Notes: generated from the sequence alone by a model not told the origin. A stretch of 64,000 nucleotides of DNA from an uncultured Bacteroidaceae bacterium (GCA_905234555.1 CAJOHO010000012.1:12123-76122), one strand, 5' to 3'; counted from the first letter of the stretch, positions 1,263 through 58,459 are shown. Made by a program: numbers and translations.

Positions 1263-1282
1263 GAAGTTTGTAAATTTTAATC

Positions 1283-1365
1283 TCGAAATGTCGAGATGTC
1301 GATATGTCGACATGTCGAAAATCGAATAATAAATCGTAAATCGTAAATCCGTAAATCGTAAATCA
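1283..1365. repeat. degenerate word array (ATGTCGAN x4, then AAATCGT x4)
   Basis: ATGTCGA occurs at 1288, 1296, 1304 and 1312 (period 8). AAATC(C)GT units run from 1331 to 1364. Confidence 0.9.
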
Positions 1366-2702: not shown

Positions 2703-3357
2703 CGGGCACGACCTCTCCCAACTGAAGACTTGGGTGGAGCCGTACGAAGTGGATGCCTGCATGGTATCCTCTACTGCCGTCATCACCCCTGAGATGCGAG
2801 AACAGATTGCCGCTACAGGGATTCAACGGATCTGTTACCTCGATCACACCACTCCGCTGCCCATCCGCAACAGCTACTCCACGCCTGAGACGCTGGGTAC
2901 AGACCGTTTGGCAGCTTCAGTGGGAGCTTATTTCCTGGCAGCCGAACTCAAGAAAAAACATGTTCCTGTTCTGGTCATCGACCTCGGAACTGCTCTCACC
3001 TTCGACCTCGTCACCGCTGAAGGCGAATACTTGGGTGGGAACATATCGCCAGGCATTCAGATGCGACTCAAAGCACTCCATCAGTTCACTGCCCGTCTGC
3101 CAAAAGTGAACCCCGAAGGTCCTCTGCCTGCGCTGGGCAACTCCACAGAGACAGCGATCCGTTGTGGAGTGATTCACGGAATACAACGTGAAATTGAAGG
3201 CGCAATCCGGCAATTCAGTGTTAATTATCCACAACTTTTAGTCTTTTTGACGGGTGGAGACACTTTAGATTTTGCCAAACCGCTAAAAAAGCATATCTTT
3301 GCAGACAAATTCCTCGTTGCAAAAGGATTGAACATTATTTTAATGCATAATTCATAA
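2599..3357 (+). CDS. coaX: type III pantothenate kinase
   Basis: The N-terminus MVNLTIDIGNTTTKVAIH carries the DxGNT motif, and GTDR and GGNISPG motifs follow. The start is the internal ATG at 2599 of ORF 2428-3357. Confidence 0.85.
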   Translation: MVNLTIDIGNTTTKVAIHTPTTVVTNPPVASLRIDGHDLSQLKTWVEPYEVDACMVSSTAVITPEMREQIAATGIQRICYLDHTTPLPIRNSYSTPETLGTDRLAASVGAYFLAAELKKKHVPVLVIDLGTALTFDLVTAEGEYLGGNISPGIQMRLKALHQFTARLPKVNPEGPLPALGNSTETAIRCGVIHGIQREIEGAIRQFSVNYPQLLVFLTGGDTLDFAKPLKKHIFADKFLVAKGLNIILMHNS

Positions 3358-3376
3358 TGCATAATTCATAATTAAT
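3341..3376. repeat. word array ATGCATAATTCATA x2 (includes the coaX stop)
   Basis: There is a 14-bp tandem duplication at 3343-3356 and 3357-3370. Confidence 0.85.
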
Positions 3377-3401: not shown

Positions 3402-4724
3402 ATGAAAAAAAGGCTTTTCCTCTTATTCTTTATTCTTCAATCTTCATTCTTCATGTTTGCCCAGAACGGAGTGAACTCCCCCTATTCCCGTTACGGATTC
3501 GGTGTACAGGCTGATCGTGCTATGGGCTTCAACAAAGGAATGGACGGAGTGGCACAAGGTTTTTCCAACGGCAACTGGATCAACACAGCTAACCCTGCAT
3601 CCTATGCTGCCGTTGACTCCCTCACGGCACTCTTCGACATGGGACTCTCCCTGCAAAACGGCAACTACTCGATGGGAGGACTCCAGCAGAATGTGCGCAA
3701 CAGCAGTCTGGACTATTTTGCGTTCCAGTTCCGTGCCCAGAAACATTGGGGTTGGACCATTGCCCTCCTGCCTTACACGAATATCAACTACAGTTTCAAG
3801 TCGTCCTCCACTCCCATCGAAGGAACGGAATCCTCCACCTCCTACACCTTCAACGGTACGGGTGGACTTCACCAAATCATGATAGGAACGGGCTGGGAAC
3901 CCCTTCGCAACCTCTCCATCGGTGTGAATTTCGCCTATCTCTTTGGCGACTACACCCATTCTGCCACGATGGCTGTGAACGAAACAAGTTCCTATTCCCT
4001 CTATCGTGCCTACACAGCTGACATCGGCACCTATTCCGCTGACTTCGGACTGCAATACACCCTTCCGCTCAACAAGAAAGACCGCCTCACCCTCGGTGTT
4101 ACCTATGGACTGGGACACGACATCAAGAATCGTGCCATCCGTTCCACCCAGACGCTTTCTTCCACAGGAACTACTCAGTCAGCTACGAACGACACCATCC
4201 GCAACGCTTTCCAGCTGCCCCACTCCATCTCTGCAGGTATCGCCTATCGCCATACAACTCGTCTTGCCATCGGTGCAGACTTCACCTACGAGAAATGGGG
4301 CGATTGCCGCTTCCCAGCTCAGGAAGCCAACACCTACGCCAGTGTGAAAGGACAGCTCAACGACCGCATGCGCATTACTGCCGGAGCCACCTTCACACCC
4401 AACAGCACAGCCACCAAATACTTCCAGCGTGTCAGCTACAAACTGGGTGCACACTATGCTCAGCCCTACGCCAAAGCTGACGGAGGCATCACCGATAAAC
4501 CCACAGAATTTGGTATCAGCGCCGGTCTGACCCTTCCCATCCAGAACCGCAACCTCTATCGCCGCTTCCCTGATATCAACATAGCTTTCCAGTGGGTTCA
4601 CAGCAGCATCCCCTATCTCAGCGCCACCACGCTCCAGCAGCATAAACTCACAGAGAACTACCTCCGCCTCTCCATCGGCATCACTTTCAGCGAACTCTGG
4701 TTCCACAAGTGGAAAGTACAGTAA
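3402..4724 (+). CDS. outer-membrane beta-barrel protein of unknown function (signal peptide)
   Basis: The signal peptide is MKKRLFLLFFILQSSFFMFAQ, followed by NSPYSRYGFG. The protein is rich in alternating aromatic and Gly strands. The start is set at ATG 3402. Confidence 0.6.
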   Translation: MKKRLFLLFFILQSSFFMFAQNGVNSPYSRYGFGVQADRAMGFNKGMDGVAQGFSNGNWINTANPASYAAVDSLTALFDMGLSLQNGNYSMGGLQQNVRNSSLDYFAFQFRAQKHWGWTIALLPYTNINYSFKSSSTPIEGTESSTSYTFNGTGGLHQIMIGTGWEPLRNLSIGVNFAYLFGDYTHSATMAVNETSSYSLYRAYTADIGTYSADFGLQYTLPLNKKDRLTLGVTYGLGHDIKNRAIRSTQTLSSTGTTQSATNDTIRNAFQLPHSISAGIAYRHTTRLAIGADFTYEKWGDCRFPAQEANTYASVKGQLNDRMRITAGATFTPNSTATKYFQRVSYKLGAHYAQPYAKADGGITDKPTEFGISAGLTLPIQNRNLYRRFPDINIAFQWVHSSIPYLSATTLQQHKLTENYLRLSIGITFSELWFHKWKVQ

Positions 4725-4770
4725 TGCATAATTGAGAATTCATAATTCATAATGCATAATGCCTAATTCA
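4722..4770. repeat. word array of the ATGCATAAT/TTCATAAT family
   Basis: The sequence is TAATGCATAATTGAGAATTCATAATTCATAATGCATAATGCCTAATTCA. Confidence 0.8.
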
Positions 4771-15546: not shown

Positions 15547-15616
15547 CGGCTTTGGCATAATCTTTGCATAACGCTGAATTCATAATGCATCATTTTTAGA
15601 AGAAACAGAAAAGCGA

Positions 15617-18136
15617 ATGAACAACAACTATTCACAGAAAGTTACACAGATACTGCAGTACAGCAAGGAAGAGGCACTTCGTCTGAACAACGACTACATC
15701 GGCCCCGAACATATTCTTCTTGGGATTATTCGCGACGGAGAAGGACGTGCCGTTGATATCCTCCAACGCAAGTGCAACCTGAATCTTGCTGACTTAAAAC
15801 AACTCATTGAAAGCAAGGTGCGCAGCAAGTCCGATATGGTCTATGCTGCTAAGGACGTCACCCTTAACGACAAGTCGTCGGGAGTGATGCGTCTCTGCAT
15901 CCTCGAATCCCGTCTGATGCATTGCAAGACAGCCGACGTGGAACATCTGCTTCTCGCCATTATGAAACAGAAAGACAACCTGCCCGCCCGTATGCTGGAG
16001 GACAAAAACGTCAACTACGACCAACTGTTCAAGTATTTCTCAAAACCGGTTCCTGCACCCAAGAACGACGTAGATTTAGAAGACGAGGACGAAGACGACC
16101 TTCCTCCCTCCAGTCGTAATGTGAACGGCGGCATCAGTACAGAAACACGTACTGAGAAGAAGACAACCAAAGGTACCGACACACCCGCCATCGACGCTTT
16201 CGGTTTCGACCTCACACGGGCAGCCCGTGACGGTATGCTCGATCCTGTGGTAGGACGAGAACGAGAAATAGAGCGTGTAGCCCAGATCCTGAGCCGCCGA
16301 AAGAAGAACAACCCTGTTCTCATCGGCGATCCTGGTGTGGGCAAAAGCGCCATTGTGGAAGGATTGGCACAGCGAATCAACGAACGCAAGGTGTCACGTA
16401 CCCTCTTCAACAAACGCCTCATCTCGCTTGACATGACCAGCGTTGTGGCAGGCACGAAATATCGCGGACAGTTTGAGGAACGCATGAAGACCATCATCGC
16501 CGAACTCAAGGCTAACCCCGACATCATCGTCTTTATCGACGAAATCCACACCCTCGTGGGAGCTGGCAACCAAGCTGGACAGATGGATGCTGCCAACATG
16601 ATGAAACCGGCATTGGCTCGCGGAGAGTTGCAATGCATCGGTGCCACCACGATGGACGAATATCGCAAGAGTATCGAGAAGGACGGAGCTTTGGAACGTC
16701 GCTTCCAGAAAATCGTGGTGGAACCCACCACAAGGGAAGAGACGCTGGAAATCCTTCACAACATCAAGGATCGCTACGAAGAGCATCACAACGTGAACTT
16801 CACGGAAGATGCCTTACAGGCATGTGTCAACTTAACCGAACGCTACGTCACCGACCGCAGTTTCCCCGATAAGGCTATCGATGCCATGGACGAAGCTGGT
16901 GCACGAGTACATATCAGTAATGTGAGTGTGCCGAAGGAGCTGGAAGAACTGGAAGAAGAAATAGCTGCAGCTAATGCCGACAAGGACAAAGCCGTCAAGA
17001 GCCAGAACTTCGAGTTAGCTGCCCAGTACCGAGACCGTGTGAAGCAGTTGGAAGCACAGTTACAGTCCAAACGAACAGCTTGGGAAGCTACTCTGGTGGA
17101 CAATCGTGAGACTGTGGATAAGGAAAAGGTGGAGGAGACCGTCTCGATGATGACAGGTATCCCCGTCCAGCGTATGGCTTCAGCCGAAGGAGTCCGCATG
17201 AAAGGGATGCGTGAGGAACTGAAGGCCAAAGTCATCGCTCAGGAAGACGCTATCGACAAACTCGTCTCGTCCATCCAGCGTAGCCGTGTAGGTCTGAACG
17301 ACCCCAACCGACCCATCGGCACCTTTATGTTCTTAGGTCCTACGGGTGTAGGTAAAACCTATCTGGCAAAGAAACTGGCAGAACACATGTTTGGAACACC
17401 CGAAGCCCTCATCCGTATCGATATGTCCGAATACATGGAGAAATTCACCGTCAGCCGACTGGTGGGAGCACCTCCAGGATATGTGGGTTACGAAGAAGGG
17501 GGAATGCTGACGGAGCGTGTACGCCGCAAGCCCTACTCCATCGTTCTGCTCGACGAAATCGAAAAAGCCCATCCCGACGTGTTTAACATCCTGCTTCAGG
17601 TGATGGACGACGGACGACTGACCGACAGCAACGGACGCACCGTCGATTTCCGCAACACCGTCATCATCATGACGTCAAACGCAGGAACTCGTCAGCTGAA
17701 GGAATTTGGACGAGGGGTTGGTTTCGCTGCCATGCAGGGTGTTGGCGACAAGGAAATGTCTCGTTCTGTGGTCAGGAAAGCACTCGAGAAGCAGTTCTCA
17801 CCTGAGTTCCTCAACCGCATCGACGAAATCATCACCTTCGACCAGCTCGAACTCGATGCCATCCTAAAGATTATCGACATCGAACTGCGTACACTCTACC
17901 AGCGGATGGAGACCTTGGGCTACCACCTGCAACTGAACGACGACGCCAAGGAGTTCATAGCCAACAAAGGCTACGACAAGCAGTTTGGTGCACGTCCCCT
18001 TCGTCGAGCCATTCAGACCCATCTGGAGGACGGTATCAGCGAACTCATCGTCGAAGAACGCTTACAGGAAGGCAACACCATCGTTGCCAAACTGAACGAA
18101 GCCAAGGACAAGGTGGTGTTTGAGGTGAATTCGTAA
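15617..18136 (+). CDS. clpC: Clp protease ATP-binding subunit ClpC
   Basis: It has Clp_N repeats, two AAA+ modules (GDPGVGKS and GPTGVGKT) and a UVR-like motif ([18 protein letters not shown]). Confidence 0.9.
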
Positions 18137-18167
18137 TGCATAATTCGTAATGCATAATGCATAATTG
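18128..18167. repeat. word array AATTCGTAATGCAT x2 plus AATGCATAATT (spans the clpC stop and the mltG start)
   Basis: The array was read directly from the sequence. Confidence 0.85.
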
Positions 18168-19205: not shown

Positions 19206-19207
19206 AT

Positions 19208-19263
19208 AATCCATAATTCCGTAAATCCGTAATTCCGTAAATCCGTAATTCCGTAAATCCGAA
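19208..19263. repeat. word array CCGTAAATCCGTAATT x3
   Basis: The 19-mer TCCGTAATTCCGTAAATCC occurs at 19226 and 19242. Its exact reverse complement occurs at 45792-45810. Confidence 0.9.
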
Positions 19264-19268
19264 ACCAG

Positions 19269-20378: not shown

Positions 20379-23116
20379 GCGATAGCATCAAAATAAAAGG
20401 CGCAAGGGTAAACAACCTGAAGAATATCGACGTGGAAATACCACGCAATCAGTTGGTTGTCATCACAGGCGTCAGCGGAAGCGGCAAGTCCAGCCTTGCC
20501 TTCGACACCCTTTATGCCGAAGGCCAGCGGCGTTATGTGGAAAGTCTCTCCACCTACGCACGTCAGTTCCTCGGACGAATGCACAAGCCGGAATGCGACT
20601 TCATCGAAGGCATTCCGCCTGCCATCGCCATTGAGCAGAAAGTGATTGCTCGCAACCCACGCTCCACCGTCGGAACCTCCACCGAGATCTACGACTACCT
20701 GCGAATGCTCTATGCACGCATCGGGCACACCTTCTCTCCTGTCAGCGGACAGGAAGTGAAGAAACACTCCATCGAGGACGTGGTGCAATGCATGCTTCAG
20801 CAGGAGGAAGGCACACGCCTGATGCTCCTCTCACCCATCGTCATTCCTGAGGGCAGGACACGTGCGGAGCAGATGGATATCTATCAGCGCGAAGGCTATC
20901 AGACCACACCCGACGAGCAGTTCCTCATCATCGACCGACTGGTGGCTCGCCACGAACAGAGCACCATCGACCGACTGATGGACTCCACTCGTACAGCCTT
21001 CTATGAAGGACACGGAGAATGTCAGCTCTTCGACGTCAAAAAAGAACAGCGTTACCATTTCTGCACCCGTTTCACGGCAGACGGCATCACCTTCGAGGAA
21101 CCCACCGACCAGCTCTTCTCCTTCAACTCTCCAGCTGGCGCCTGTCCTGAGTGCGAAGGATTCGGACGTGTGGTTGGTATCGACGAGAATCTGGTGATTC
21201 CCAACTCCGAACTCAGCGTGGCAGAAGGGGCTGTGCTCTGCTGGCGAGGTGAGAAGATGGGCGAATGGAAAAACGAGTTCGTGCGTCGTGCCCGCCATTA
21301 CGATTTTCCTGTCTTCACACCTTATTACCAGCTCACACAGGAGCAGAAAGACCTCCTCTGGCACGGAGACCCCCATCTCGACCCACAGGAAAGCGTATGC
21401 ATCGACGCGTTCTTCGAGATGCTTCGCCAGAACCAATATAAGATTCAATATCGAGTGATGTTGGCTCACTATCGTGGTAAGACCACTTGCCCAGCCTGTC
21501 ACGGAACTCGTCTGCGCAAGGAAGCCTCCTATGTGAAAGTGGGTGGACGCAGCATCACCGAACTGGTGCAGATGCCTGTTTCCGATTTACGCGTCTGGTT
21601 CGACAACCTACAGCTCGATGCCCACGATGCCGAAGTGGCTCATCGGCTGCTTTTGGAGATTCAGAGCCGTCTGCGCTTCCTCTGCGACGTAGGACTCAAC
21701 TACCTCACCCTCAACCGTCTGAGCAATACCCTCTCAGGCGGAGAAAGCCAGCGCATCAACCTCGCCACAAGCCTCGGCAGCAGCCTGGTGGGTTCGCTCT
21801 ACATCCTCGACGAACCCAGCATCGGCCTTCACAGCCGCGACACCCAGCGTCTCATCCATGTGCTTCAGGAACTCAGGGAACTGGGCAACACCGTCGTCGT
21901 CGTAGAGCACGACGAGGAAATCATGAACGCAGCCGACTACATCATCGACATCGGTCCGGATGCAGGCCGTCTCGGCGGCAAAGTCGTTTGGCAAGGCAAC
22001 AAAGCCGACATCCAGAACCTGCTTTCCCAACCATCAAACGACCAACCCTCACACACACTCGACTACCTCACAGGCAAAGAAACCATTCCCGTCCCCACCT
22101 CTCGCCGTCCCTGGAACAACTACATCGAAGTGAAAGGCGCACGCGAGAACAACCTCAAAGGCATCGACGTGAAGTTCCCACTCAACGTCATGACAGTGGT
22201 GACAGGTGTGAGCGGAAGCGGTAAATCCACACTCGTCCGCGACATCCTCTACCGAGCCATGAAGCGCCAGATGGACGAAGTGACCGACCGCCCAGGACAG
22301 TTTCTCAGCCTGAGTGGAGACACCAACCTCGTGAAGCGTGTCGAATTCATCGACCAGAACCCCATCGGCACCTCCTCACGCAGCAATCCTGTCACCTATA
22401 TCGGAGCCTACGACGAAATCCGCAAGCTCATGGCACAGCAGCAACTCTCCAAGCAGATGGGCTACACCCCTGCCTACTTCTCCTTCAACCAGGAAGGCGG
22501 ACGCTGCGAGGAATGTAAGGGCGAAGGAACCGTCACCATCGAGATGCAGTTCATGAACGACCTCGTGCTTGAGTGCGAATCCTGTCACGGACAGCGTTTC
22601 AAGAGCGATATCCTCGATGTCCGCTACGAAGGAATGAACATCTTCGAGATGCTCAACATGACCATCAACCAAGCCGTTGAGTTCTTCACAGATCATCAAC
22701 AGAAGAAAATCGTGCAGAAGATGAAACCCTTGCAGGACGTAGGACTGGGCTACCTGAAACTCGGACAAAGTTCAAGCACGTTGTCTGGAGGAGAGAACCA
22801 GCGTGTGAAGCTCGCCTACTATCTGAGTCAGGAAAAGGCTGTCCCTACCCTATTCATCTTCGACGAACCCACAACCGGTCTCCACTTCCACGACATCAAG
22901 CGCCTGCTCAACGCCTTCCATTCCCTCATCAGCCGAGGACACACCATTCTCATCATCGAGCATAACATGGACGTCATCAAATGTGCCGACCACGTCATCG
23001 ACCTCGGTCCTGAAGGCGGAGCCGAAGGAGGCACCCTCGTCGTCGCCGGAACCCCCGAAGAAGTCTCCCAACACCCCACCTCCTACACCGCCCACTACCT
23101 GAAAGAAAAATTATAA
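20375..23116 (+). CDS. uvrA: excinuclease ABC subunit A (UvrA family)
   Basis: It has two ABC modules (GVSGSGKSSL and GVSGSGKSTL), LSGGE signatures and CxxC zinc modules. Confidence 0.9.
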   Translation: MSDSIKIKGARVNNLKNIDVEIPRNQLVVITGVSGSGKSSLAFDTLYAEGQRRYVESLSTYARQFLGRMHKPECDFIEGIPPAIAIEQKVIARNPRSTVGTSTEIYDYLRMLYARIGHTFSPVSGQEVKKHSIEDVVQCMLQQEEGTRLMLLSPIVIPEGRTRAEQMDIYQREGYQTTPDEQFLIIDRLVARHEQSTIDRLMDSTRTAFYEGHGECQLFDVKKEQRYHFCTRFTADGITFEEPTDQLFSFNSPAGACPECEGFGRVVGIDENLVIPNSELSVAEGAVLCWRGEKMGEWKNEFVRRARHYDFPVFTPYYQLTQEQKDLLWHGDPHLDPQESVCIDAFFEMLRQNQYKIQYRVMLAHYRGKTTCPACHGTRLRKEASYVKVGGRSITELVQMPVSDLRVWFDNLQLDAHDAEVAHRLLLEIQSRLRFLCDVGLNYLTLNRLSNTLSGGESQRINLATSLGSSLVGSLYILDEPSIGLHSRDTQRLIHVLQELRELGNTVVVVEHDEEIMNAADYIIDIGPDAGRLGGKVVWQGNKADIQNLLSQPSNDQPSHTLDYLTGKETIPVPTSRRPWNNYIEVKGARENNLKGIDVKFPLNVMTVVTGVSGSGKSTLVRDILYRAMKRQMDEVTDRPGQFLSLSGDTNLVKRVEFIDQNPIGTSSRSNPVTYIGAYDEIRKLMAQQQLSKQMGYTPAYFSFNQEGGRCEECKGEGTVTIEMQFMNDLVLECESCHGQRFKSDILDVRYEGMNIFEMLNMTINQAVEFFTDHQQKKIVQKMKPLQDVGLGYLKLGQSSSTLSGGENQRVKLAYYLSQEKAVPTLFIFDEPTTGLHFHDIKRLLNAFHSLISRGHTILIIEHNMDVIKCADHVIDLGPEGGAEGGTLVVAGTPEEVSQHPTSYTAHYLKEKL

Positions 23117-23131
23117 ATTAAAAATTATAAA

Positions 23132-23208
23132 GTCGAAATGTCGAAATCCAGAAAAAATCTTAAAAATCGAAAAATAAATCGTAAATCGTCAATCGTCAAA
23201 TCGTAAAT
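23132..23208. repeat. word arrays GTCGAAAT x2 and AAATCGT(C) x4
   Basis: These are the same word families as at 1283-1365. Confidence 0.8.
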
Positions 23209-25160: not shown

Positions 25161-25233
<73 letters not shown>

Positions 25234-29493: not shown

Positions 29494-29529
29494 AAAAGTG
29501 AAAAGTGAAAAGTGAAGAGTGAAGAATTC
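29493..29529. repeat. word array (A)AAAGTG/AAGAGTG x5
   Basis: The sequence AAAAAGTGAAAAGTGAAAAGTGAAGAGTGAAGAATTC directly follows the stop codon. Confidence 0.85.
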
Positions 29530-29551: not shown

Positions 29552-29720
29552 GGAACATTTTGGAACAGCGAGAGCAGAGACCAAACTTGTTTGGACTATG
29601 CCGGACCGACGCACGAAGCAAGAGTAGAGGCCAAACTTGTTTGGGCTATGAGGAGGAAGACGTCAGTCAGTCGTGACAAAATCGACTGAATGTAATTCAG
29701 TAAACCGTAAACTGTAAACT
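29552..29720 (+). repeat. 169-bp structured element, copy 1 (ends 16 nt before the ATG of the PD40 lipoprotein gene)
   Basis: It is identical to 31523-31676 over 154 bp and matches 168/169 over the full length. It contains two CCAAAC-TT-GTTTGG hairpins 50 bp apart, plus TCAGTCG-N8-CGACTGA and CTGAAT-GTA-ATTCAG. Confidence 0.95.
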
Positions 29721-29736
29721 GTAAACCAAAAATTCG

Positions 29737-31436: not shown

Positions 31437-31497
31437 AGGCGCCCCAATTTGTCGAAATGTCGATATTCCGAAATATCGAAATGTCGACAAGGCGCCT
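31437..31497. repeat. 61-bp imperfect palindrome built from TCGAAATGTCGA words
   Basis: The outer arms are AGGCGCC/GGCGCCT and the inner arms are TCGATATT/AATATCGA. It lies 3 nt after the stop of the PD40 gene. Confidence 0.8.
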
Positions 31498-31522
31498 TCG
31501 AAATGTCGAAAAAAATTAAACA

Positions 31523-31691
31523 GGAACATTTTGGAACAGCGAGAGCAGAGACCAAACTTGTTTGGACTATGCCGGACCGACGCACGAAGCAAGAGTAGAG
31601 GCCAAACTTGTTTGGGCTATGAGGAGGAAGACGTCAGTCAGTCGTGACAAAATCGACTGAATGTAATTCAGTAAACGGTAAACTGTAAACT
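31523..31691 (+). repeat. 169-bp structured element, copy 2 (ends 9 nt before the ATG of the S9 peptidase gene)
   Basis: This is a direct repeat of 29552-29720, offset by 1971 bp. Confidence 0.95.
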
Positions 31692-33907: not shown

Positions 33908-34060
33908 AGCCCCCTCTAATCAATGGTCTTTACACCCCCTTCGCGCCCACCGTTGCAAGTGGGGGACTTGCAACCCTTTGTGGGGTCGGAGCCACATTCA
34001 GTGCCTCCTCTAAAGACCGTCGTCCCCAGTCATCGGGGGACAGAAACCCCCAAGGGGGAG
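33908..34060 (+). repeat. GC-rich element, long form (block A, 88-nt insert, block B)
   Basis: It has the same terminal blocks as 26290-26366. The internal part carries the hairpin TTGCAAGT-GGGGG-ACTTGCAA. Confidence 0.9.
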
Positions 34061-34094
34061 AATTATGAATTATGCATTATGAATTACGAATTAA
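34059..34094. repeat. word array GAATTATG/CATTATG/GAATTACG
   Basis: It is in the reverse orientation relative to the ATGCATAATTC family. Confidence 0.75.
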
Positions 34095-40648: not shown

Positions 40649-40815
40649 GTTTTTTATCGAAAAGAGCCGTTTTCTGAACCTCGTTGACTTTTCAAAGCTC
40701 ACAATTCTGCCAGAGTACGTTCTAAAATTCCACAAAGCACACTTGGCTTTGTGTTCAAATAAGCTACCTTGATAAGTTTTTCCTGTGCATAATTGGAAGA
40801 TTGAAGAATAATGCG

Positions 40816-40823
40816 TAAATTTG
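40816..40823 (+). promoter_or_regulatory. -7 box TAAATTTG (gmd-fcl)
   Basis: It lies 36 nt upstream of ATG 40859. Confidence 0.55.
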
Positions 40824-40858
40824 CAACGAAATCTATAACAAGGTTGAATTTCTATCGC

Positions 40859-41941
40859 ATGGCAAAGAAAGCATTGATTACGGGTATTACGGGTCAGGAC
40901 GGTAGTTTCCTGGCTGAGTTCCTGATTGAAAAAGGATATGAGGTGCACGGCATCATGCGCCGCAGCAGTTCGTTTAACACAGGTCGTATCGAACACCTTT
41001 ACCTCGACGAGTGGGTGCGCGATATGAAGAAGAAACGCCTGGTGAACCTGCACTGGGGAGATATGACGGACAGTTCGAGTCTGGTTCGTATCATCATGGA
41101 AATCAAGCCCGACGAGATATACAATCTGGCTGCTCAGAGCCATGTGAAGGTATCGTTCGATGTGCCTGAGTTTACGGCAGAGGCTGACGCTGTGGGTGTG
41201 CTGCGACTGCTGGAGGCTGTGCGTATCGTGGGACTGGCTGACAAGTGCCGCATCTATCAGGCATCGACGAGTGAGTTGTTCGGATTGGTGCAGGAAGTTC
41301 CGCAGAAGGAGACTACCCCATTCTATCCGCGTTCGCCCTACGGAGTAGCTAAGCAGTACGGTTTCTGGATTATGAAGAACTACCGTGAGAGCTACGGCAT
41401 GTTTTGCTGCAATGGCATTCTGTTCAACCACGAGAGTGAGCGAAGAGGCGAGACTTTCGTGACTCGCAAGATTTCGCTGGCAGCAGCCCGTATTGCCCAA
41501 GGTTTCCAGGACAAGCTGTATCTGGGTAATCTGAACAGCCTGCGCGACTGGGGCTATGCGAAGGATTACGTGGAATGTATGTGGCTGATGCTGCAACAGG
41601 ACAAGCCCGACGATTTTGTGATTGCCACAGGTCAGTACCACTCGGTTCGCGAGTTCTGCACGCTGGCTTTCAAAGAAGCAGGCATAGAACTGTGGTGGGA
41701 AGGTAAAGGAGTGGATGAGAAAGGTATTGACACGAAAACCGGACGTATGCTGGTGGAAGTTGATCCCAAGTATTTCCGACCTGCAGAGGTGGAACAGCTG
41801 TTGGGCGATCCGACGAAAGCCAGAACTGTGCTGGGTTGGAATCCGCAGCAAACAAGTTTTGAAGAACTTGTCAGGATCATGGTGCAGCACGACATGAAAA
41901 AAGTGAAGAAACTGTATCTTCGCGAACACATAGATGACTAA
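40859..41941 (+). CDS. gmd: GDP-mannose 4,6-dehydratase
   Basis: The N-terminus is [29 protein letters not shown], followed by an SDR core YGVAKQY. The start is ATG 40859, downstream of a TAAATTTG box. Confidence 0.9.
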
Positions 41942-41971: not shown

Positions 41972-42019
41972 CACTGTGGGAAGTTTCAGGATTCATGTTT
42001 CAGGTTTCAAGTTGAAAGT

Positions 42020-42961
42020 ATGGAATTAGATTCGAAAATATATGTAGCGGGACACCGAGGGATGGTGGGTTCTGCCATCGTAAGGGAGTTGAAGCGACAA
42101 GGCTACACGAATATCATTACCAGAACGCACAAGGAACTGGATCTGACCCGTCAGGAGGCGGTGGAGCAGTTCTTCGCTGAGGAGAAGCCGGAATATGTGT
42201 TTCTGGCGGCAGCAAAGGTGGGCGGTATTGTCGCCAACCAGAGTGCCCTTGCCGACTTTATGTACGAGAACATGGTGCTGGAAATGAACGTGATTCATGC
42301 TGCATGGAAGAACGGCTGCAAGAAGCTGGAGTTTCTGGGAAGCAGTTGTATCTATCCCCGTCTGGCTCCGCAACCTATGCCTGAGAGCTGCCTGCTCACA
42401 GGTTCTTTGGAGAAAACCAACGAAGCCTACGCGCTGGCAAAAATATCGGGACTGAAATACTGCGAATACCTGAACAGACAATATGGAACGGACTATATCT
42501 CCGTGATGCCCACGAACCTCTACGGTCCCAACGATAACTACCATCCTGAGCACAGCCACGTGCTCCCTGCCCTCATCCGCAGGTTTCACGAAGCCAAGGA
42601 AACTGGTGCGGAAAGCGTCACCTGCTGGGGAGACGGTACGCCTTTGAGAGAGTTCCTCTATGTGGATGATCTCGCCAACCTGTGTGTCTTCCTCATGAAC
42701 CATTACAGCGGCAACGAAACCGTGAACGCCGGTACGGGCAAAGAACTCACCATCAAAGCCTTGACTGAACTGGTAGCAAAAGTGGTTGGGTATAAAGGTC
42801 GCATCGAATGGGACACAACTCGTCCCAACGGCACACCCCGAAAACTGCTGGATGTGAGCAAGGCCACGCAGTTGGGCTGGACCTACCGAACAGAGTTGGA
42901 AGAGGGCATTCGCCTCGCCTACGAAGATTTCCTGTCAAACCCCATGAGGGCAGAAAGGTAA
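42020..42961 (+). CDS. fcl: GDP-L-fucose synthase
   Basis: Conserved stretches are [22 protein letters not shown] and NLYGPNDNY. The start is ATG 42020. Confidence 0.9.
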
Positions 42962-42982
42962 AGAAGCAAAAAGGTAAAGAGG

Positions 42983-43014
42983 TAAAGAAAAGCCTCGTGG
43001 GAAAACCACGAGGC
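42983..43014 (-). terminator. intrinsic terminator of the GHL10 gene (shared hairpin family)
   Basis: The stem-loop is GCCTCGTGG-GAAAA-CCACGAGGC. On the minus strand the hairpin is followed by CTTTTCTTT. Confidence 0.7.
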
Positions 43015-43040: not shown

Positions 43041-44525
43041 TCAGAAGCGGATGCGGATGGGTTTGGATTCGTTGTGGAGGCGGTCGAGTGCCGTGATGAG
43101 GAGGAGGTGGTCGGCAAACGGACCGTTGAGGAGGATTTCAGGCGAAGTGGTGATGGCAAGAATGTGAGTAGCATCTTCAAGGTTCACCTTCTCTCCTGGA
43201 CGGAAATCATAGACCACATACTGCACGGCACGATCCATCTCACGCTTTGCCTTAGGTGCGCTCCATCTTAACACCGTTCCCTGACTGCTCTGCTCCAATC
43301 GTGGATTACGCGGCTGCTTCGGCGCTTTCTTGTCGATGAACGTCATCAGCGGCTGAAGAGCCGGATAGCGATGATAATAGGTGCGAAGACGATCGGCATA
43401 ACCACCAGGATTGTTACAAACCGCAGCTGCATACCATTGGCAGGAACCTTGCACATTTTTCATAGAACGCTGAATCTCATACTTGGCATCCATCTGATGC
43501 TTCTGCGGATTCTGCGGATCGGTTCCCTTTACCGTCCGTTCCACATCCTGACCAATGAACAAAGGACGCTGGTGGCAGAAGTCGTTCCACCAGTTACATA
43601 GAATCTCGTAATCAGCTGCCCGATTCCCGATATTCCAATAAACCTGCGGAAGCAAATAATCCACCCAACCTTCCTGCTGCCAAAGAACAACATCAGCATA
43701 GAGGTCATCGTAGTTCTGTGTTCCCTTCGTCGCACTACCCCGCTTGGCGTTCACCATCTCTGTGTTATTACGATAAATGCCGAAAGGAGAGATGCCGAAC
43801 TTCACCCAAGGCTTCACCTCACGAATCAGACGATGAAGGTCGCGAATAAGCAGATTGACATTGTCGCGACGCCAGTCCTCGATGTTGGCGAACCCACGCG
43901 GATCTGCCTGATAATAAGCCTCATCGGGAATCTGAACTCCTGCCACAGGATAGGGATAGAAGTAGTCGTCCATGTGGATGCCATCTACGTCGTAGTGCTG
44001 AAGGATATCCTCCACCACCATGCAGGTGTAGGTACGGTTTTCAGGAAGGGCAGGATTGACAATCTGCAAACCATCATAGGGAAAGACACGTTCAGGATGA
44101 CGCACGACATAATGCGTGTTTGCCAGTTCGCTGGTGAATTTCGTCTTGGCACGATAAGGATTGATCCACGCATGGAGTTCCATTCCGCGTCGATGACACT
44201 GGTCCACCATCCACGACAGAGGATCCCATCCGTCGCTTGGTGCCACTCCCTGCTGACCCGTCAGATAACGGCTCCACGGTTCGTACTGAGAATGGTAGAG
44301 TGCATCACACTCTGCCCTCACCTGGAAGATGATGGCATTGATGCCACATTGTTGGAGACGGTCCAGCTGTGAGGACAGCATTTCGCGCAACTGTTCTGGT
44401 GTTTTGCCAAGATACTGTCCGTTGACACACTGAATCCAAGCACCACGGAATTCACGCTTGGGGGGATTCTGAGCCTGAGCGAAAACCGTAAAAAGTAGAA
44501 AAAACGAAAGGAGGAGCTTTTTCAT
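43041..44525 (-). CDS. glycoside-hydrolase-like family 10 (GHL10/DUF187) protein
   Basis: The signal peptide is followed by EFRGAWIQCV, and a TIM-barrel-like core follows (GINAIIFQVR, HAWINPYR). Confidence 0.65.
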   Translation of the reverse strand: MKKLLLSFFLLFTVFAQAQNPPKREFRGAWIQCVNGQYLGKTPEQLREMLSSQLDRLQQCGINAIIFQVRAECDALYHSQYEPWSRYLTGQQGVAPSDGWDPLSWMVDQCHRRGMELHAWINPYRAKTKFTSELANTHYVVRHPERVFPYDGLQIVNPALPENRTYTCMVVEDILQHYDVDGIHMDDYFYPYPVAGVQIPDEAYYQADPRGFANIEDWRRDNVNLLIRDLHRLIREVKPWVKFGISPFGIYRNNTEMVNAKRGSATKGTQNYDDLYADVVLWQQEGWVDYLLPQVYWNIGNRAADYEILCNWWNDFCHQRPLFIGQDVERTVKGTDPQNPQKHQMDAKYEIQRSMKNVQGSCQWYAAAVCNNPGGYADRLRTYYHRYPALQPLMTFIDKKAPKQPRNPRLEQSSQGTVLRWSAPKAKREMDRAVQYVVYDFRPGEKVNLEDATHILAITTSPEILLNGPFADHLLLITALDRLHNESKPIRIRF

Positions 44526-44572
44526 AATGGGTTAATGGGAATATTAAAGGGCTTAATGGGTTTAATGGGGTA
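44525..44572. repeat. word array TAATGGG x4 (plus TAAAGGG)
   Basis: Copies lie at 44525, 44533, 44545 (variant), 44554 and 44563. Confidence 0.85.
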
Positions 44573-45786: not shown

Positions 45787-45850
45787 TTTATGGATTTACG
45801 GAATTACGGATTTTGGGATTTTCGGAATTACGAAATTACGGAATTACGAA
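45787..45850. repeat. word array ATTTACGG/AATTACGG/AATTACGA
   Basis: It belongs to the reverse-complement family of 19208-19263. Confidence 0.85.
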
Positions 45851-46500
45851 AAAGATGAAACATTAAGTTTTTCCTGAAGGGCTGGCATCCAGTCTACGTT
45901 CTTGGGAACCAACAAGCCATGAATGCCCAGTTGGTTGGCTGCCTCCACATTGGCTGGTCCATCGTCGAGGAAGATGGTTTCCTCCGCACGACAACCTGAT
46001 TCCGTCAGAACACGCTGGAAGATGGTGGCCGACGGCTTGTAGTCCTTCATCTTATAGCTATAGAAGGTGCGATGGAAATAGTAGCCGATGGGGTGTCCGT
46101 CGCCGCTGAAGTCGGTGCTGTCTGCCCAATGCGTCATATAAGGATTGGTGTTGCTCAGCAGCAGGACGTTATAGGACTCTTTGAGTTTCAGCAAGTTCTG
46201 CAGTCGTTCCTTTCGAACTTCCGTCACATAACCGCGCCAAGCCCATTCACATTGCTCAAACGTGAACTCAGGTGTCTCGGCGCTGCCAGAGAGTTCCTGA
46301 ACCAGCTTTCCCAACTGCTGACGGAAGGTTTCTGCGTCGATGCTTCCGTTCTCGCATTGCAGGAAAATGCCTGTCTGGCCGTACTTGCCCAGCCGTTCGC
46401 GAGCATCAGTCACACCCAGCGACTCAAACCGTCGGTAGGCTTCTTCAGGGTTCAGCGGAACTACCACGCCGCCAAAGTCGAAAATCAGGTTTTTTATCAT
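45844..46500 (-). CDS. HAD-superfamily hydrolase
   Basis: Motif I is LIFDFGGVVV, and the C-terminal motif is FLDDGPANV. Confidence 0.7.
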   Translation of the reverse strand: MIKNLIFDFGGVVVPLNPEEAYRRFESLGVTDARERLGKYGQTGIFLQCENGSIDAETFRQQLGKLVQELSGSAETPEFTFEQCEWAWRGYVTEVRKERLQNLLKLKESYNVLLLSNTNPYMTHWADSTDFSGDGHPIGYYFHRTFYSYKMKDYKPSATIFQRVLTESGCRAEETIFLDDGPANVEAANQLGIHGLLVPKNVDWMPALQEKLNVSSFS

Positions 46501-46508
46501 TGAATTAT

Positions 46509-46571
46509 CAGAGGGTTCGGAGAACTCGGAGAACTCAGAGGATTCGGAGGATTTAGAGAACTCGGAGGATT
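46509..46571. repeat. seven tandem 9-mers (YRGAGRRYT)
   Basis: The units are CAGAGGGTT, CGGAGAACT, CGGAGAACT, CAGAGGATT, CGGAGGATT, TAGAGAACT and CGGAGGATT. Confidence 0.9.
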
Positions 46572-46572
46572 C

Positions 46573-49193: not shown

Positions 49194-49286
49194 CGAAAAA
49201 AAAATCATAAACCATAAAAAAGTGTGATAATCCTTGCATTTTTATGAATTTATAAATTATAATTTAGAATTTAGAATTATATTTCG

Positions 49287-52510: not shown

Positions 52511-54313
52511 TTAGTGTTCGGTAATGACTTCTACATCGCTGTAGCCCATGCGGTCGCCCTGTGCCAGACGCAGGCCCTCCACACGGATGACTTTGGCACG
52601 CGTGGACTTGCAGCAGATGGTCTGCCAGATGGGATTGTTCACAATATTCGAGAACTCGCCCTCGCCCAGCGTCTCCCAGGTTTTCCAGTCAGTGGTGGCG
52701 GAGATGCGATAGTGGGTGACGATGCCGTCCTTCGAATCCTGTGGCGGCAGATAGCGGAAACCCGTGACGTTCGCCTCGTCATTGAGGGTGATGAACATCA
52801 CGCGGTCGGCACCGAAGAAAATGTAGTAGTCGGATGAATGCTTTTCGCCTGCATCGGGTGTATCAAGCGTGATGTCAGGAGCCAAATACACAGATGTGCG
52901 CTTGATGACAGGCCGGCATCTGGCTTCGGTGACAGTGAAACGCAGACGAGTAGCCGTCACTGTTGGGAAGCAGATGATGCGTCGATGCCCAATCGTGGTC
53001 AGCCCATCACCGTTCTCGGCCAGTTCATCCTTCAGCGGAATCCATTTTCCATCGACTTCGGCTTCGAGCGAGAACTTCTTTACATGTTGCCCACAGCGGA
53101 TGTCCTCCTCAACGACGAAGCGGTTGAACGTTGTTGGCTTTTTGAAGGTGATGAGAGTTCCCTCCTGCGTTCCCCTTTTTGGATCGGCTCCCAATGCTTT
53201 TATTTTTGCTTTCTTCGCCAAATCGATCTTGAACACCTCGTCAATCATCTTCTTGAAGGCGATGCCGCGAATGCTGTCCGTGGGATGGATGCGCCCGTTG
53301 GGAGCGATGGGGAAGTTAAGCAACAGGCAGGAGTTGCGGCCTACCGATTTATAATAGGTGTCCATCAGTTTCGAGAGGCTCTTCACGTTCTCGTTCTCCG
53401 TCTCGTGGTAGAACCAGCCCGGACGGATGCTGGTGTTCGTCTCGGCAGGACACCACACATCGCCGTCCTCCAATCCGTAGTGGAGCATGGGCCATGTGAC
53501 CTCGTCGTCGTGGTTCAGAAAACTCCAATTGGTCTCGCCGACATTACCTGCCTCAGTTCCTACCCAACGCAGGTCACCGCGGTCGCTTCCGTCGTTCCAG
53601 ATGAGACAATGGGGTTGCAACTCACGTATCATCTTATAGGTCTCGGGCCACTCATAATAGGTCGTGCGGTCTATACGGCGCGTCTCGTTCGCCCCGCCAT
53701 ACCAGCCGTCGCCTCCGTTGGCTCCGTCAAACCACACCTCGAACATCGCGCCATACTCCGTCAGCAACTCACGCAGCTGATTGCGGAAGTAGGTGACGTA
53801 TTCTGGTTTGCCGTAATCAGGATGATTTCTGTCCCAAGGTGAGAGATAGACGGCATATTCCAGCCCCTCAGCCTTGCAAGCCTCAGCCAGTTCGCGAACC
53901 ACATCTCCCTGACCATTCTTCCAAGGTGAGTTCTTCACAGAATACTCTGTATATTTCGACGGCCACATACAGAAACCACAATGGTGCTTGGCTGTGAAGA
54001 TGATACCCTTCATACCAGCCTGTTTGCAGACGCGTGCCCACTGGCGACAATCAAGGTCTGTGGGATTGAACAGCTTAGGGTCTTCATTGCCGAAGCCCCA
54101 CTCCTGATCGGTATAAGTGTTCAGCGAATAGTGGATGAAGGCGTACATCTCCATGTCCTGCCATCGCAACTGATTGTCGCTTGGGTAAGGGCCACAAAAC
54201 ACAGAACTATCATAACTCTGCCAAGGACTACGCGGCACAAAAATCCTATCACTCTGCGCGAACAACACAACTGCTATCGTACTTAAAAAGATAGTTGAAA
54301 TCAGTTTTTTCAT
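52511..54313 (-). CDS. GH29 alpha-L-fucosidase with a C-terminal discoidin-like domain
   Basis: It has a signal peptide and a GH29 core (FTAKHHCGFCMWPS, YLSPWD). The start is ATG 54313 (MKKLIS). Confidence 0.85.
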   Translation of the reverse strand: MKKLISTIFLSTIAVVLFAQSDRIFVPRSPWQSYDSSVFCGPYPSDNQLRWQDMEMYAFIHYSLNTYTDQEWGFGNEDPKLFNPTDLDCRQWARVCKQAGMKGIIFTAKHHCGFCMWPSKYTEYSVKNSPWKNGQGDVVRELAEACKAEGLEYAVYLSPWDRNHPDYGKPEYVTYFRNQLRELLTEYGAMFEVWFDGANGGDGWYGGANETRRIDRTTYYEWPETYKMIRELQPHCLIWNDGSDRGDLRWVGTEAGNVGETNWSFLNHDDEVTWPMLHYGLEDGDVWCPAETNTSIRPGWFYHETENENVKSLSKLMDTYYKSVGRNSCLLLNFPIAPNGRIHPTDSIRGIAFKKMIDEVFKIDLAKKAKIKALGADPKRGTQEGTLITFKKPTTFNRFVVEEDIRCGQHVKKFSLEAEVDGKWIPLKDELAENGDGLTTIGHRRIICFPTVTATRLRFTVTEARCRPVIKRTSVYLAPDITLDTPDAGEKHSSDYYIFFGADRVMFITLNDEANVTGFRYLPPQDSKDGIVTHYRISATTDWKTWETLGEGEFSNIVNNPIWQTICCKSTRAKVIRVEGLRLAQGDRMGYSDVEVITEH

Positions 54314-54351
54314 ATTTATATCGGTATTATCCTGCAAAGTTCAGAAAAAAA

Positions 54352-54430
54352 ATGAAATATGAAGAATGAAGTGTGAAAAATGAAGAGTGAAGCGTGAAAA
54401 GTGAAGCGAGAAGGGTGAAGAGAAGAAAGG
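54352..54430. repeat. about 11 tandem 7-8-mers of the RTGAAGN family
   Basis: The sequence is ATGAAATATGAAGAATGAAGTGTGAAAAATGAAGAGTGAAGCGTGAAAAGTGAAGCGAGAAGGGTGAAGAGAAGAAAGG. Confidence 0.85.
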
Positions 54431-57850: not shown

Positions 57851-58043
57851 CGGAAAAAAATCGGACCGACCGCATGATTCCAACAAAAATAATTCAAGAA
57901 ACATGTTTTTACATAGTTTTTGGAGATGAATTGCAGTTGACTGCAAGAATATTTGGTTCCTGATGCACTCTCTTGATAAGCAAACACTTACAGCGTGCAG
58001 AGCGAACACAAATTCTCTCGAAAGTTAAGTCAAAATAAAATTT

Positions 58044-58142
58044 CAAATACTTGGATGAAAAATTCCAAGTACTTGGAAAAAAATTTCTAAGTACTTAAAA
58101 AAATATTTCCAAGTACTTGAAAAAAAAATTCTAAGTACTTGG
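58044..58142. repeat. five-copy, 22-bp-period array of (C)YAAGTACTTRR palindromes separated by A-tracts
   Basis: The cores lie at 58044-58054 (degenerate), 58065-58076, 58087-58097, 58109-58120 and 58131-58142. The last four are spaced exactly 22 bp apart. Confidence 0.9.
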
Positions 58143-58186
58143 AAATTTCGTTAGAGTTAAGAGTTACGGAAATTTGAGCGAAGAAA

Positions 58187-58240
58187 AGTGAAAAGTGAAG
58201 CGTGAAGAGTTGAGCTTCTCTTCACGCTTCACTTTTCATT
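58187..58240. repeat. long perfect hairpin (20-bp stem, 8-nt loop) built from GTGAAG words
   Basis: The 5' arm at 58190-58209 (GAAAAGTGAAGCGTGAAGAG) is the exact reverse complement of 58218-58237. Three further flanking pairs include one wobble. Confidence 0.9.
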
Positions 58241-58430
58241 GCCACTTCGTTCTCGCCTCCGCTGATCGCTCCCACGCCTAAAAAGCCCCAGGCTTTTTGC
58301 CGCTTACGCTGTCAATAAGGCTTAATGGGCTCCCTTGCTTGTCAGCAAGACTATGCCCGCCTTATTTCCCGAAGGCTTTGCCTTTCGAGACGGCGTGACG
58401 TAGCTGCTTCGGCTCGCGATGGCTTCGCCA

Positions 58431-58459
58431 TTCTTCACTCTTCACTCTTCATTCTTCAC
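58431..58459. repeat. word array CTTCACT/CTTCATT x4 (reverse complement of the GTGAAG family)
   Basis: It abuts the stop codon of the TonB-dependent receptor. Confidence 0.8.

Follow-up and report, generated by a model that had tools for sequence, protein, structure and literature searches.

Short head-to-tail tandem arrays occupy many gene junctions in a 64,000-nucleotide (nt) stretch of DNA from an uncultured Bacteroidaceae bacterium (positions 12123-76122 of contig C12, CAJOHO010000012.1, of genome G000, GCA_905234555.1; the whole stretch is called the window). The arrays belong to the class of heptanucleotide long simple-sequence repeats (LSSRs), which includes the short tandemly repeated repetitive (STRR), GGGAATC, and TAACTGA repeats and has been described but not explained. 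They are strongly enriched between the genes of the whole genome, turn over between species, and vary between strains in whole units. On balance, we lean toward reading these solo arrays and the inverted arms of cassettes encoding S23p, an Avd-like four-helix-bundle protein (PF05635), as one repeat system. The link to S23p cassettes was missed by the first-pass annotation, which a model had made from the window alone.

Tandem arrays at gene junctions throughout the genome

G000 (2.49 Mb in 67 contigs, 81% complete, approximately 50% G+C) represents a Prevotella-like Bacteroidaceae lineage of the rumen. Bovine metagenomes hold contigs nearly identical to the window, and the nearest named genome is a Bacteroidaceae metagenome-assembled genome (MAG) from horse faeces, at 70% protein identity. 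Tandem arrays were detected with Tandem Repeats Finder (TRF) in the window and across the whole of G000, where 554 arrays remained once overlapping TRF rows were dropped. Genes were called with a simple codon-usage open reading frame (ORF) model, which gave 1,828 genes and 86% coding DNA with approximate start codons. In the following, G codes denote genomes, and L codes denote other contigs or strains that were compared.

Enrichment was counted for arrays of at least three copies in the intergenic DNA of G000, with five dinucleotide-preserving shuffles as the control. The genome contained 280 arrays of period 7, 110 of period 8, 41 of period 9, and 12 of period 6, compared with approximately 2, 2, and 1 arrays of periods 7, 8, and 9 in the shuffles. 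Chance is excluded as the source of the intergenic arrays. On the crude gene calls of the ORF model, the density of period-7 arrays was 1.07 per kb in intergenic DNA versus 0.055 per kb in coding DNA (19-fold), and that of period-8 arrays was 0.50 versus 0.022 per kb (22-fold); the frame-keeping period-9 arrays were only 2.6-fold denser between genes than within them. The first-pass annotation had described a strict confinement of the arrays to gene boundaries. The intergenic bias is strong and extends through the genome, and the wording was slightly overstated, as some arrays lie in frame inside genes.

Arrays were present in 341 of the 1,420 G000 spacers of at least 25 nt (24%) and in 17 of the 34 such spacers of the window, where many junctions had indeed been reported to carry them. 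The neighboring stop codon was touched or overlapped by 24% of the arrays, compared with 3% under random placement within the same spacer, in agreement with the earlier remark that arrays include adjacent stop codons. In addition, 33% were located within 10 nt of a start codon (20% under the same random placement). Many arrays fill spacers of 31 to 63 nt between codirectional housekeeping genes and end a few nucleotides before the next start codon, and divergent spacers contain 78 arrays. Only approximately 17 of the 554 arrays form inverted pairs. We therefore rejected the idea that most arrays are members of inverted hairpin pairs, the pattern of Xanthomonas or Acidobacteria.

The roughly 550 arrays fall into more than 200 unit classes, and the units are A/T-rich. 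A typical array has four to five units of 7 or 8 nt and spans approximately 30 nt; every major family has a mean of 4.5 to 5 copies and a median length of 30 to 34 nt, and array length has its peak at 28 to 35 nt in every family. The top family, GTGAAGA, occupies 83 loci, which share four core units and a weaker fifth and have no conserved flanks. Because conservation stops at the array edges, we rejected the idea that the GTGAAGA arrays are parts of a larger dispersed element. Perfect GTGAAGA runs numbered 51 with two units, 13 with three, 29 with four, and 1 with five, and the identical 29-mer A(GTGAAGA)4 recurred at 17 unlinked loci. GTGAAGA accounted for 23% of the period-7 arrays; in the rest of the intergenic DNA, its share of the heptamers was 0.136% (rank 147 of 1172), a difference of approximately 170-fold. 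The commonest background heptamers form no arrays.

The families also differ in position and polarity. TAAATCG was found in the sense orientation relative to adjacent genes in a ratio of 41:2, and its arrays end a median of 5.5 nt before the downstream start codon. The AAACATT and AATCCGTA arrays act similarly, 9 to 10 nt before the start codon, and the arrays of TAATGCA and ATGAATT lie against stop codons, at a median of 1 nt. The occurrence of families in either orientation, as first noted, thus applies to GTGAAGA and ATGAATT but not to TAAATCG. The copy-number cap, the skewed vocabulary, and the family-specific polarity do not fit plain slippage.

Sixteen array stretches were folded as RNA. 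Twelve gave 0 to -6.2 kcal/mol, most with z scores near 0, and most lacked a U tract. Strong hairpins were found only at the TCGA-containing stretches 1279-1365 and 31437-31515, so that the original description of the arrays as non-hairpin holds for most arrays and fails for these two. Stop codons in all three frames were present in 48% of the arrays on the sense strand and in 36% on the antisense strand, and they were rejected as a design principle on this small difference.

Turnover of the arrays and their proposed relation to S23p cassettes

The genus comparison covered 17 genomes with housekeeping proteins 58 to 76% identical and 4 to 140 kb of DNA sampled per relative; 1.39 Mb from 80 genomes outside the genus, mostly Bacteroidota, served as control DNA. 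None of the cross-genome statistics is corrected for phylogeny. The sampled array density within the genus ranged from 0 (G001, G010, and G014) to 0.67 to 0.78 per kb (G002 and G004), a spread of more than 50-fold, compared with 0.014 per kb in the next genus and approximately 0.03 per kb in the control DNA. Exact (GTGAAGA)3 occurred 74 times in G000 and at most five times in each of 16 other genomes of the genus. At the four orthologous junctions 1263-1376, 15547-15616, 18137-18167, and 19206-19268, the spacers of the relatives (G001, G003, G006, G009, G010, and G017) were short, unrelated in sequence, and arrayless. A metagenome scan for intermediate relatives gave a best match of 54% identity, and no series of empty sites was found.

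Between strains at 96 to 98% identity, in contrast, array positions were kept. The unit number was unchanged in four of the five arrays compared at this distance, three of which are retained in strain L153 (96% identity), and the changes seen were of exactly three units in one array and of one unit in one cassette arm. The arrays are therefore young among species, stable among strains, and altered in whole units; they are lineage specific, are not gene-specific signals, and are probably passenger DNA. Among the three possibilities listed in the first-pass annotation, footprints of a repeat-generating process fit best with the lineage specificity, the whole-unit variation, and the arrayless junctions of congeners; a protein- or RNA-binding role may hold for some families, such as TAAATCG with its polarity and its place before start codons.

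The only PF05635 gene in G000 lies on the minus strand at C50:~3560-3940 (profile match, C50:3633-3893), and its protein of 116 residues matches PDB 2RLD (E = 1.9e-19). Bacteroides thetaiotaomicron, the control of the profile search, does carry PF05635 genes. No PF05635 match was found within the window, whose arrays are solo or, at 58183-58460, an ORF-less pair. The family resembles Avd of diversity-generating retroelements (DGRs) (PMC10053308). The G000 gene is bracketed by (AGTGAAG)x5.6 and (TCTTCAC)x3.9, and these arms pair into a closing stem of approximately 27 bp in the predicted RNA fold (z score, -3.9). This architecture recurred among 20 S23p loci drawn from Bacteroidales, Omnitrophota, Chitinophagaceae, Flavobacterium, and others. 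At 14 of the 20, the left flank scored at least 17.5 against the reverse complement of the right flank (shifted controls, at most 14), and 17 carried a tandem array of 7- to 8-nt units on at least one side of the ORF, with a unit that differs per cassette.

In all five array-rich genomes of the genus sampled, the commonest solo family was the arm unit of a resident cassette (tied for the top in G002); apart from G000, the samples comprised 14 to 50 solo arrays per genome. The matches were as follows.

G000: arms GTGAAGA, the top solo family (83 loci)
G002: arms GTGAAGC, the tied top solo family
G004: arms GTGAAAA, the top solo family (8 of 14 arrays)
G008: arms GTGAAAA, ranking first among the solo families; arms of a second cassette AAAATTA, tied second
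G009: arms ATGAAGA, the top solo family

In addition, a cassette in G012 has ATTTACG arms, the reverse complement of TAAATCG, which ranks third among the families of G000. A density of at least 0.1 arrays per kb was reached in 12 of 23 genomes with PF05635 and in none of 8 without it (P = 0.012, Fisher's test). The presence of S23p looks necessary but not sufficient for dense arrays.

One junction was polymorphic between a solo array and a cassette. In L283, TAA is followed by a G+C-rich hairpin, then by a solo array of the sequence (CTCTTAC)3-TTCTTAT-TTCTTCA, and finally by ATG. In L282 and G000, the same junction contains a left arm (GTGAAGA)3-4, the S23p ORF, a right arm (TCTTCAC)4, and ATG. 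The array on the ATG side matches the left arm in the cassette strains and is a different variant in the cassette-free strain.

We infer a shared generating mechanism for the solo arrays and the arms, as well as a putative direction of the relation between them. The solo arrays would be single arms or landing sites of the S23p repeat system. Slippage or arm-to-arm copying would build and resize them by entire units, up to approximately four to five, and they would be retained only at junctions, where 7- and 8-nt units disrupt no reading frame; elsewhere, such units break frames. Any effects on expression would be secondary, through unstructured A/U-rich leaders and, in about half of the cases, all-frame stop codons.

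Several results weigh against a single repeat system. G000 has one cassette for approximately 550 arrays and more than 200 unit classes, and for most of its families no cassette is resident in the assembly, which is only 81% complete. The number of S23p genes correlated only weakly with array density (rho = 0.36) and was rejected as its predictor. The array density is 0.07 per kb in G027, with its 16 S23p genes, and zero in G029, with 4, and S23p is common in array-poor Bacteroidota as well. The difference between L283 and L282 is a replacement rather than a clean insertion. The match between arms and families would also be expected if cassettes merely sit among the commonest arrays (conservative null, P of approximately 0.01). 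No transposase, recombinase, or reverse transcriptase was linked to the arrays or to S23p, and thus there is no known route for array spread. Finally, selection on expression is indicated by the family-specific position and polarity and would not be expected from a pure passenger model. Array synthesis templated by a reverse transcriptase was rejected, as no PF00078 match was found in G000 at its 81% completeness.

Outside these comparisons, a degenerate S23p fragment, 70% identical to the G009 protein across 24 residues, was located at C7:46583-46703 of G000, in a 216-nt spacer without adjoining arrays. An Omnitrophota MAG (L096/G031, JAFGQU010000007.1; 1.8 Mb) has 10 PF05635 genes, 7 of them on one contig, and 7 arrays of 7 to 8 nt in 22 kb, and it looks like a very dense case outside Bacteroidota. 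A search of the accessible literature found no paper linking PF05635 to heptamer repeats. The vocabulary that follows the S23p arms within the genus, together with the solo/cassette junction, makes the oddity testable with one small protein and defined oligonucleotides.

Alternative explanations and known repeat systems

A more specific role of the protein can be imagined, to which we give little weight. The heptamer arrays may be cis sites of pentameric rings of S23p/Avd-like four-helix bundles, with one subunit per 7-nt unit. As parts of the same doubtful proposal, reading by subunits would set the 7-nt period and the size of approximately four to five units, the cassettes would carry a matched inverted pair of sites, and the solo arrays would serve as docking or landing sites, to be created, resized, or used by the protein. 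If true, this would provide one answer both to the 35-year-old heptamer puzzle (STRR, GGGAATC, and TAACTGA) and to the function of the widespread S23p family.

It also seems unlikely that the arrays are plain microsatellite-like repeats, neutral and without a real relation to S23p, that arose by in-place polymerase slippage with a preferred 7-nt register. Such a register was proposed by Mrazek in 2007, as cited in PMC4679880 and PMC4692102, and the dominance of heptamers is shared with the other repeat-rich genomes mentioned there. Slippage would also account for strains that differ by whole units, for orthologous congener junctions without arrays, and for coding DNA that tolerates period 9 and not periods 7 and 8. 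The closest relative even has TAATCC, a possible seed, beside the stop codon at junction 19206-19268. However, slippage predicts an open tail of copy numbers, and the perfect GTGAAGA runs stop at four units. The 17 identical 29-mers, the unit usage far off the background heptamers, of which the commonest form no arrays, the polarity of TAAATCG, and the solo vocabularies that track resident S23p arms in every array-rich genome argue against it as well. These constraints beyond simple slippage, namely the cap at approximately four to five units, the skewed vocabulary, and the family-specific polarity at starts, are what the dense rumen Bacteroidales case of G000 adds to the record of such repeats.

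A translation role for some families, TAAATCG above all, is a serious rival, if an improbable one. The arrays would be cis-acting mRNA modules, that is, unstructured A/U-rich leaders with all-frame stop codons that recruit the ribosome or a single-strand RNA-binding protein of the S1, cold-shock, or RNA recognition motif type. The phylum of the Bacteroidales works mostly without Shine-Dalgarno pairing, which makes such leader modules plausible. The sense bias of TAAATCG just ahead of start codons, the similar placement of AAACATT and AATCCGTA, the near-zero folding energies of most arrays, the all-frame stops in a good part of them, and the enrichment within 10 nt of start and stop codons are all consistent with this role. 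Against it, the same housekeeping junctions work in congeners with arrayless spacers of 14 to 60 nt, the largest families occur in both orientations, and array density varies more than 50-fold within one genus. The same reading has been offered for TAACTGA repeats (PMC4679880).

Hairpin-free transcription terminators or insulators are very unlikely. Many arrays begin at or just after a stop codon (the 24% that touch one), and the two TCGA-containing stretches, 1279-1320 and 31437-31515, do form hairpins. Most arrays, however, have neither structure nor a U tract and thus lack the G+C-rich hairpin and U tract of intrinsic terminators; many instead fill short codirectional spacers up to the next start codon, divergent spacers hold arrays equally, and none matches an Rfam family. 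As for an assembly or binning artefact, a fragmented and incomplete MAG is prone to misassembly at repeats, but independent assemblies from other samples (L138, L153, L154, L282, and L283; flanks 2 to 4% diverged) carry the same arrays and other genomes of the genus carry related ones, so that this explanation can practically be dismissed.

The record of heptanucleotide repeats between genes goes back to 1990 for cyanobacteria and was later extended to Xanthomonas, Burkholderia, Beggiatoaceae, and others. The first-pass annotation was aware of no described function for such arrays. The arrays as such are not undescribed: intergenic heptanucleotide tandem repeats appear in PMC4679880 and PMC4692102, which cite the survey of heptanucleotide LSSRs by Mrazek et al. 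(2007) and, in PMC4692102, the STRR heptamers of Calothrix PCC 7601. The G000 arrays agree with this class in their head-to-tail units with 7 nt predominant (the class spans 5 to 11 nt), in numbers far above the composition expectation of approximately 2 per period in shuffles, in the intergenic bias of units that are not multiples of 3, and in sporadic, lineage-specific occurrence with length variation among close relatives. LSSR and STRR repeats likewise have head-to-tail 7-nt units (some of 8 to 9 nt) and are over-represented, intergenic, lineage specific, and of several families per genome. The present case differs in its host, a rumen Bacteroidaceae bacterium, its A/T-rich units, its number of classes, its sharp mode of four to five units, and its visible link with S23p.

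The TAACTGA repeats that MacGregor (2015, PMC4679880) described from marine Beggiatoaceae, cyanobacteria, and a few Bacteroidetes also occur as two to six forward copies a few nucleotides upstream of starts, sometimes overlap the upstream stop codon, and carry all-frame stops, and the spacers of close relatives are shorter and repeat free. The TAAATCG family acts like them in position and polarity only. In Beggiatoaceae, a single unit dominates, whereas G000 has many families with other unit sequences and with GTGAAGA in both orientations; TAACTGA was not among the unit families found in G000. The GGGAATC repeats of Xanthomonas and the GGGGA(C/T)T repeats of Nostoc (Rehm et al. 2015, PMC4692102) are similarly about 90% intergenic and close to a neighboring ORF, vary in length and sequence among close relatives, and are unrelated to surface or virulence genes. 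In contrast to the few paired arrays of G000, many of them form convergent (inverted) pairs, and their units are G-rich and quadruplex capable rather than A/T-rich and unstructured.

With the 23S rRNA intervening sequences that carry an S23p ORF and with the Avd of DGRs (PF05635/cd16375; PMC10053308), the G000 cassette shares a small four-helix-bundle ORF, inverted arms, and a long stem. The cassette lies between protein-coding genes rather than in rRNA, and tandem heptamers make up its arms; no reverse transcriptase was found in G000, and most arrays are solo and ORF-less. Contingency simple-sequence repeats, such as the heptamer tract upstream of Haemophilus influenzae hmw (PMC8262952, PMC12721329), also consist of short tandem units near gene starts that change in whole units. 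However, they are few, long, perfect, and hypermutable tracts at surface or virulence genes, whereas the present arrays, counted in hundreds, are short and imperfect, sit at housekeeping junctions, and for the most part do not differ between strains 2 to 4% apart. CRISPR arrays (24- to 48-nt repeats with unique spacers) do not apply to units of 7 to 9 nt that abut directly without spacers.

Arrays of the window and arrays inside genes

TRF recovered 18 of the 19 arrays listed in the first-pass annotation, and all ten of its word families are present. The remaining array, at 15570-15595, is weak; it has approximately 2.5 degenerate TAATKCA units, and TRF gives only an 11-nt repeat (x1.9) at 15550-15571. 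TRF added arrays at 3421-3454, 23108-23131, 31671-31691, and 49241-49281. The neighboring genes, identified with Pfam, are housekeeping genes (lptF/G, DEAD-box helicase, lptC, Clp ATPase, yceG, glycosyltransferase, uvrA-like, and dnaX), and the sole Rfam match in the window at gathering score is a tRNA at 25161-25233. The arrays detected by TRF are as follows.

1279-1320, plus strand: AATGTCGA x5.2, between an LptF/G-like gene (ends at 1262) and a DEAD-box helicase gene
1330-1364, plus strand: TAAATCG x4.9, sense, 12 nt ahead of GTG at 1377
3341-3373, plus strand: TAATGCA/TAATTCA x4.7, overlapping the stop codon of the gene ending at 3357
3421-3454, plus strand: TCTTCAT x5.0, in frame within a signal peptide (TRF and translation)
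4722-4770, plus strand: TAATGCA/TAATTCA x6.6, filling the spacer from the stop codon (4722-4724) to the LptC-like ATG at 4772
18128-18165, plus strand: TAATGCA/AATTCGT x4.6, including the Clp ATPase stop codon and reaching the start of the YceG-like gene
19208-19261, plus strand: 8-mer AATCCGTA/AATTCCGTA x6.8, filling the spacer between the YceG-like and glycosyltransferase genes
23108-23208, plus strand: compound array of AAATTAT x3.4, GTCGAAAT x2, and TAAATCG x4.7, ending 7 nt before the dnaX ATG at 23216
29494-29523, plus strand: GTGAAAA/GTGAAGA x4.3, directly after the stop codon at 29493; fold of approximately 0 kcal/mol
29700-29727, plus strand: GTAAACC x4.0, 9 nt ahead of ATG at 29737; fold of 0 kcal/mol
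31437-31515, plus strand: TGTCGAAA-type array within a strong palindromic hairpin, downstream of the gene ending at 31434
31671-31691, plus strand: GTAAACT x3.0, 9 nt ahead of ATG at 31701
34060-34093, plus strand: GAATTAT x4.9, 4 nt ahead of ATG at 34098
41981-42013, plus strand: GTTTCAG x4.4, between genes 40811-41941 and 42020/42062-42961
42956-42988, plus strand: AGGTAAAG x4.1, within a convergent spacer and running over the stop codon at 42961
44525-44569, minus strand: degenerate TAATGGGTT x4.8, between two minus-strand genes and abutting the start of 43041-44525; fold of 0 kcal/mol
45788-45848, minus strand: TTACGGAA (reverse complement, TTCCGTAA) x7.6, overlapping the stop codon of a HAD hydrolase gene (45844-46500)
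46508-46572, minus strand: 9-mer TCGGAGAAC x5.7 (scored by TRF as a 27-mer, too), occupying the entire spacer between 46500 and 46573
49241-49281, no strand given: TTTATAA x5.3, in a divergent spacer
54351-54422, minus strand: degenerate GTGAAGA-family array x9, upstream of minus-strand gene 52511-54337; fold of 0 kcal/mol
58183-58210, plus strand: GTGAAAA x4.0, left member of an inverted pair with its partner 221 nt away
58432-58460, minus strand: GTGAAGA x4.1 (TCTTCAC on the plus strand), right member of the pair

The AATGTCGA array folds to a hairpin because its unit holds the palindrome TCGA, and the stretch 1279-1365 as a whole folds at -19.4 kcal/mol (z score, -2.4). The hairpin at 31437-31515, with TGTCGAAA/ATATCGAAA units closed by GGCGCC, is stronger (-32.1 kcal/mol; z score, -6.9). 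It is located just past the stop codon at 31434 and resembles a terminator or an element of the repetitive extragenic palindromic type. The inverted pair at 58183-58460 (C12:70305-70582) encloses no ORF, and its right member supplies the stop codon of the minus-strand gene 58460-60850.

Among the strains, array 3341-3373 shows no internal differences in the 96%-identical L153 and one substitution 4 nt past its end, and array 4722-4770 is kept there with one substitution. In the bovine metagenome contig L138 (98% identity), array 18128-18165 is identical, and array 19208-19261 is shorter by exactly 24 nt, or three units. Among the relatives, the junction orthologous to 1263-1376 in G017 is a 23-nt spacer without an array, the junctions orthologous to array 18128-18165 in G003, G006, G009, and G010 have none, and array 19208-19261 is missing in G001, G003, G006, and G009, whose spacers measure 14 to 60 nt.

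Arrays also supply stop codons, C-terminal residues, and signal-peptide cores, and they therefore affect gene calls and annotation. The TCTTCAT array at 3421-3454, whose reverse complement is ATGAAGA, encodes in frame the signal-peptide hydrophobic core MKKRLFLLFFILQSSFFMFAQ of a 440-residue protein without a Pfam match. In many genes, the reading frame enters a GTGAAGA array and the protein therefore ends in (K)VKSEE; the array provides the last residues and the TGA stop codon. Examples are as follows.

C41:15840-15867
C16:97183
C50:5167 (reverse complement)

At least six large G000 proteins carry GTGAAGAGTTAAGAGTGAAGAGTGAAGA or a close variant in frame as SEELRVKSEE approximately 100 nt before the stop codon; the in-frame TGA is lost in these copies because the second unit is GTTAAGA. 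The loci are as follows.

C3:107773-107800
C14:28357-28385
C16:53795-53822
C36:23778-23806
C36:28388-28411
C35:~805

These copies precede a shared tail of approximately 30 residues, WYxLxGRx...GxYIxNGKKV, in surrounding protein sequence that differs. The word also occurs in a seventh protein (C40:2132-2154), 291 nt ahead of the stop codon, together with the same tail. Identification of this tail as a type IX secretion sorting domain was not supported by Pfam or NCBIfam, neither of which matched the 60-residue tails. In L196 (G009:C9, ~3562-3584), a variant of the GTGAAGA family encodes SSLLTLNSSL in frame on the opposite strand, within an open frame of more than 830 residues, and arrays can therefore sit in coding DNA in a stop-free orientation.

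Fully palindromic elements of approximately 170 to 220 nt are also present in G000. They have inverted end arrays of three to five units, with a unit that differs per copy, around an A/T-rich (TATATA) palindromic core, which is 92 to 97% identical in three copies. They look like ORF-less counterparts of the S23p cassette and are located as follows.

C11:47439-47613
C11:67391-67593
C12:124-342
C18:36223-36400
C20:6-183
C35:31664-31833
C40:35026-35211
C57:5757-5932

A separate class of repeats has a 22-nt period, with 43 intergenic TRF rows in G000 and none in the shuffles. It is represented in the window at 58033-58145 and is common across the genus, for example as (AAAACGAACGCACTCGAAAGGC)x8 in G010 at the junction orthologous to 18137-18167.

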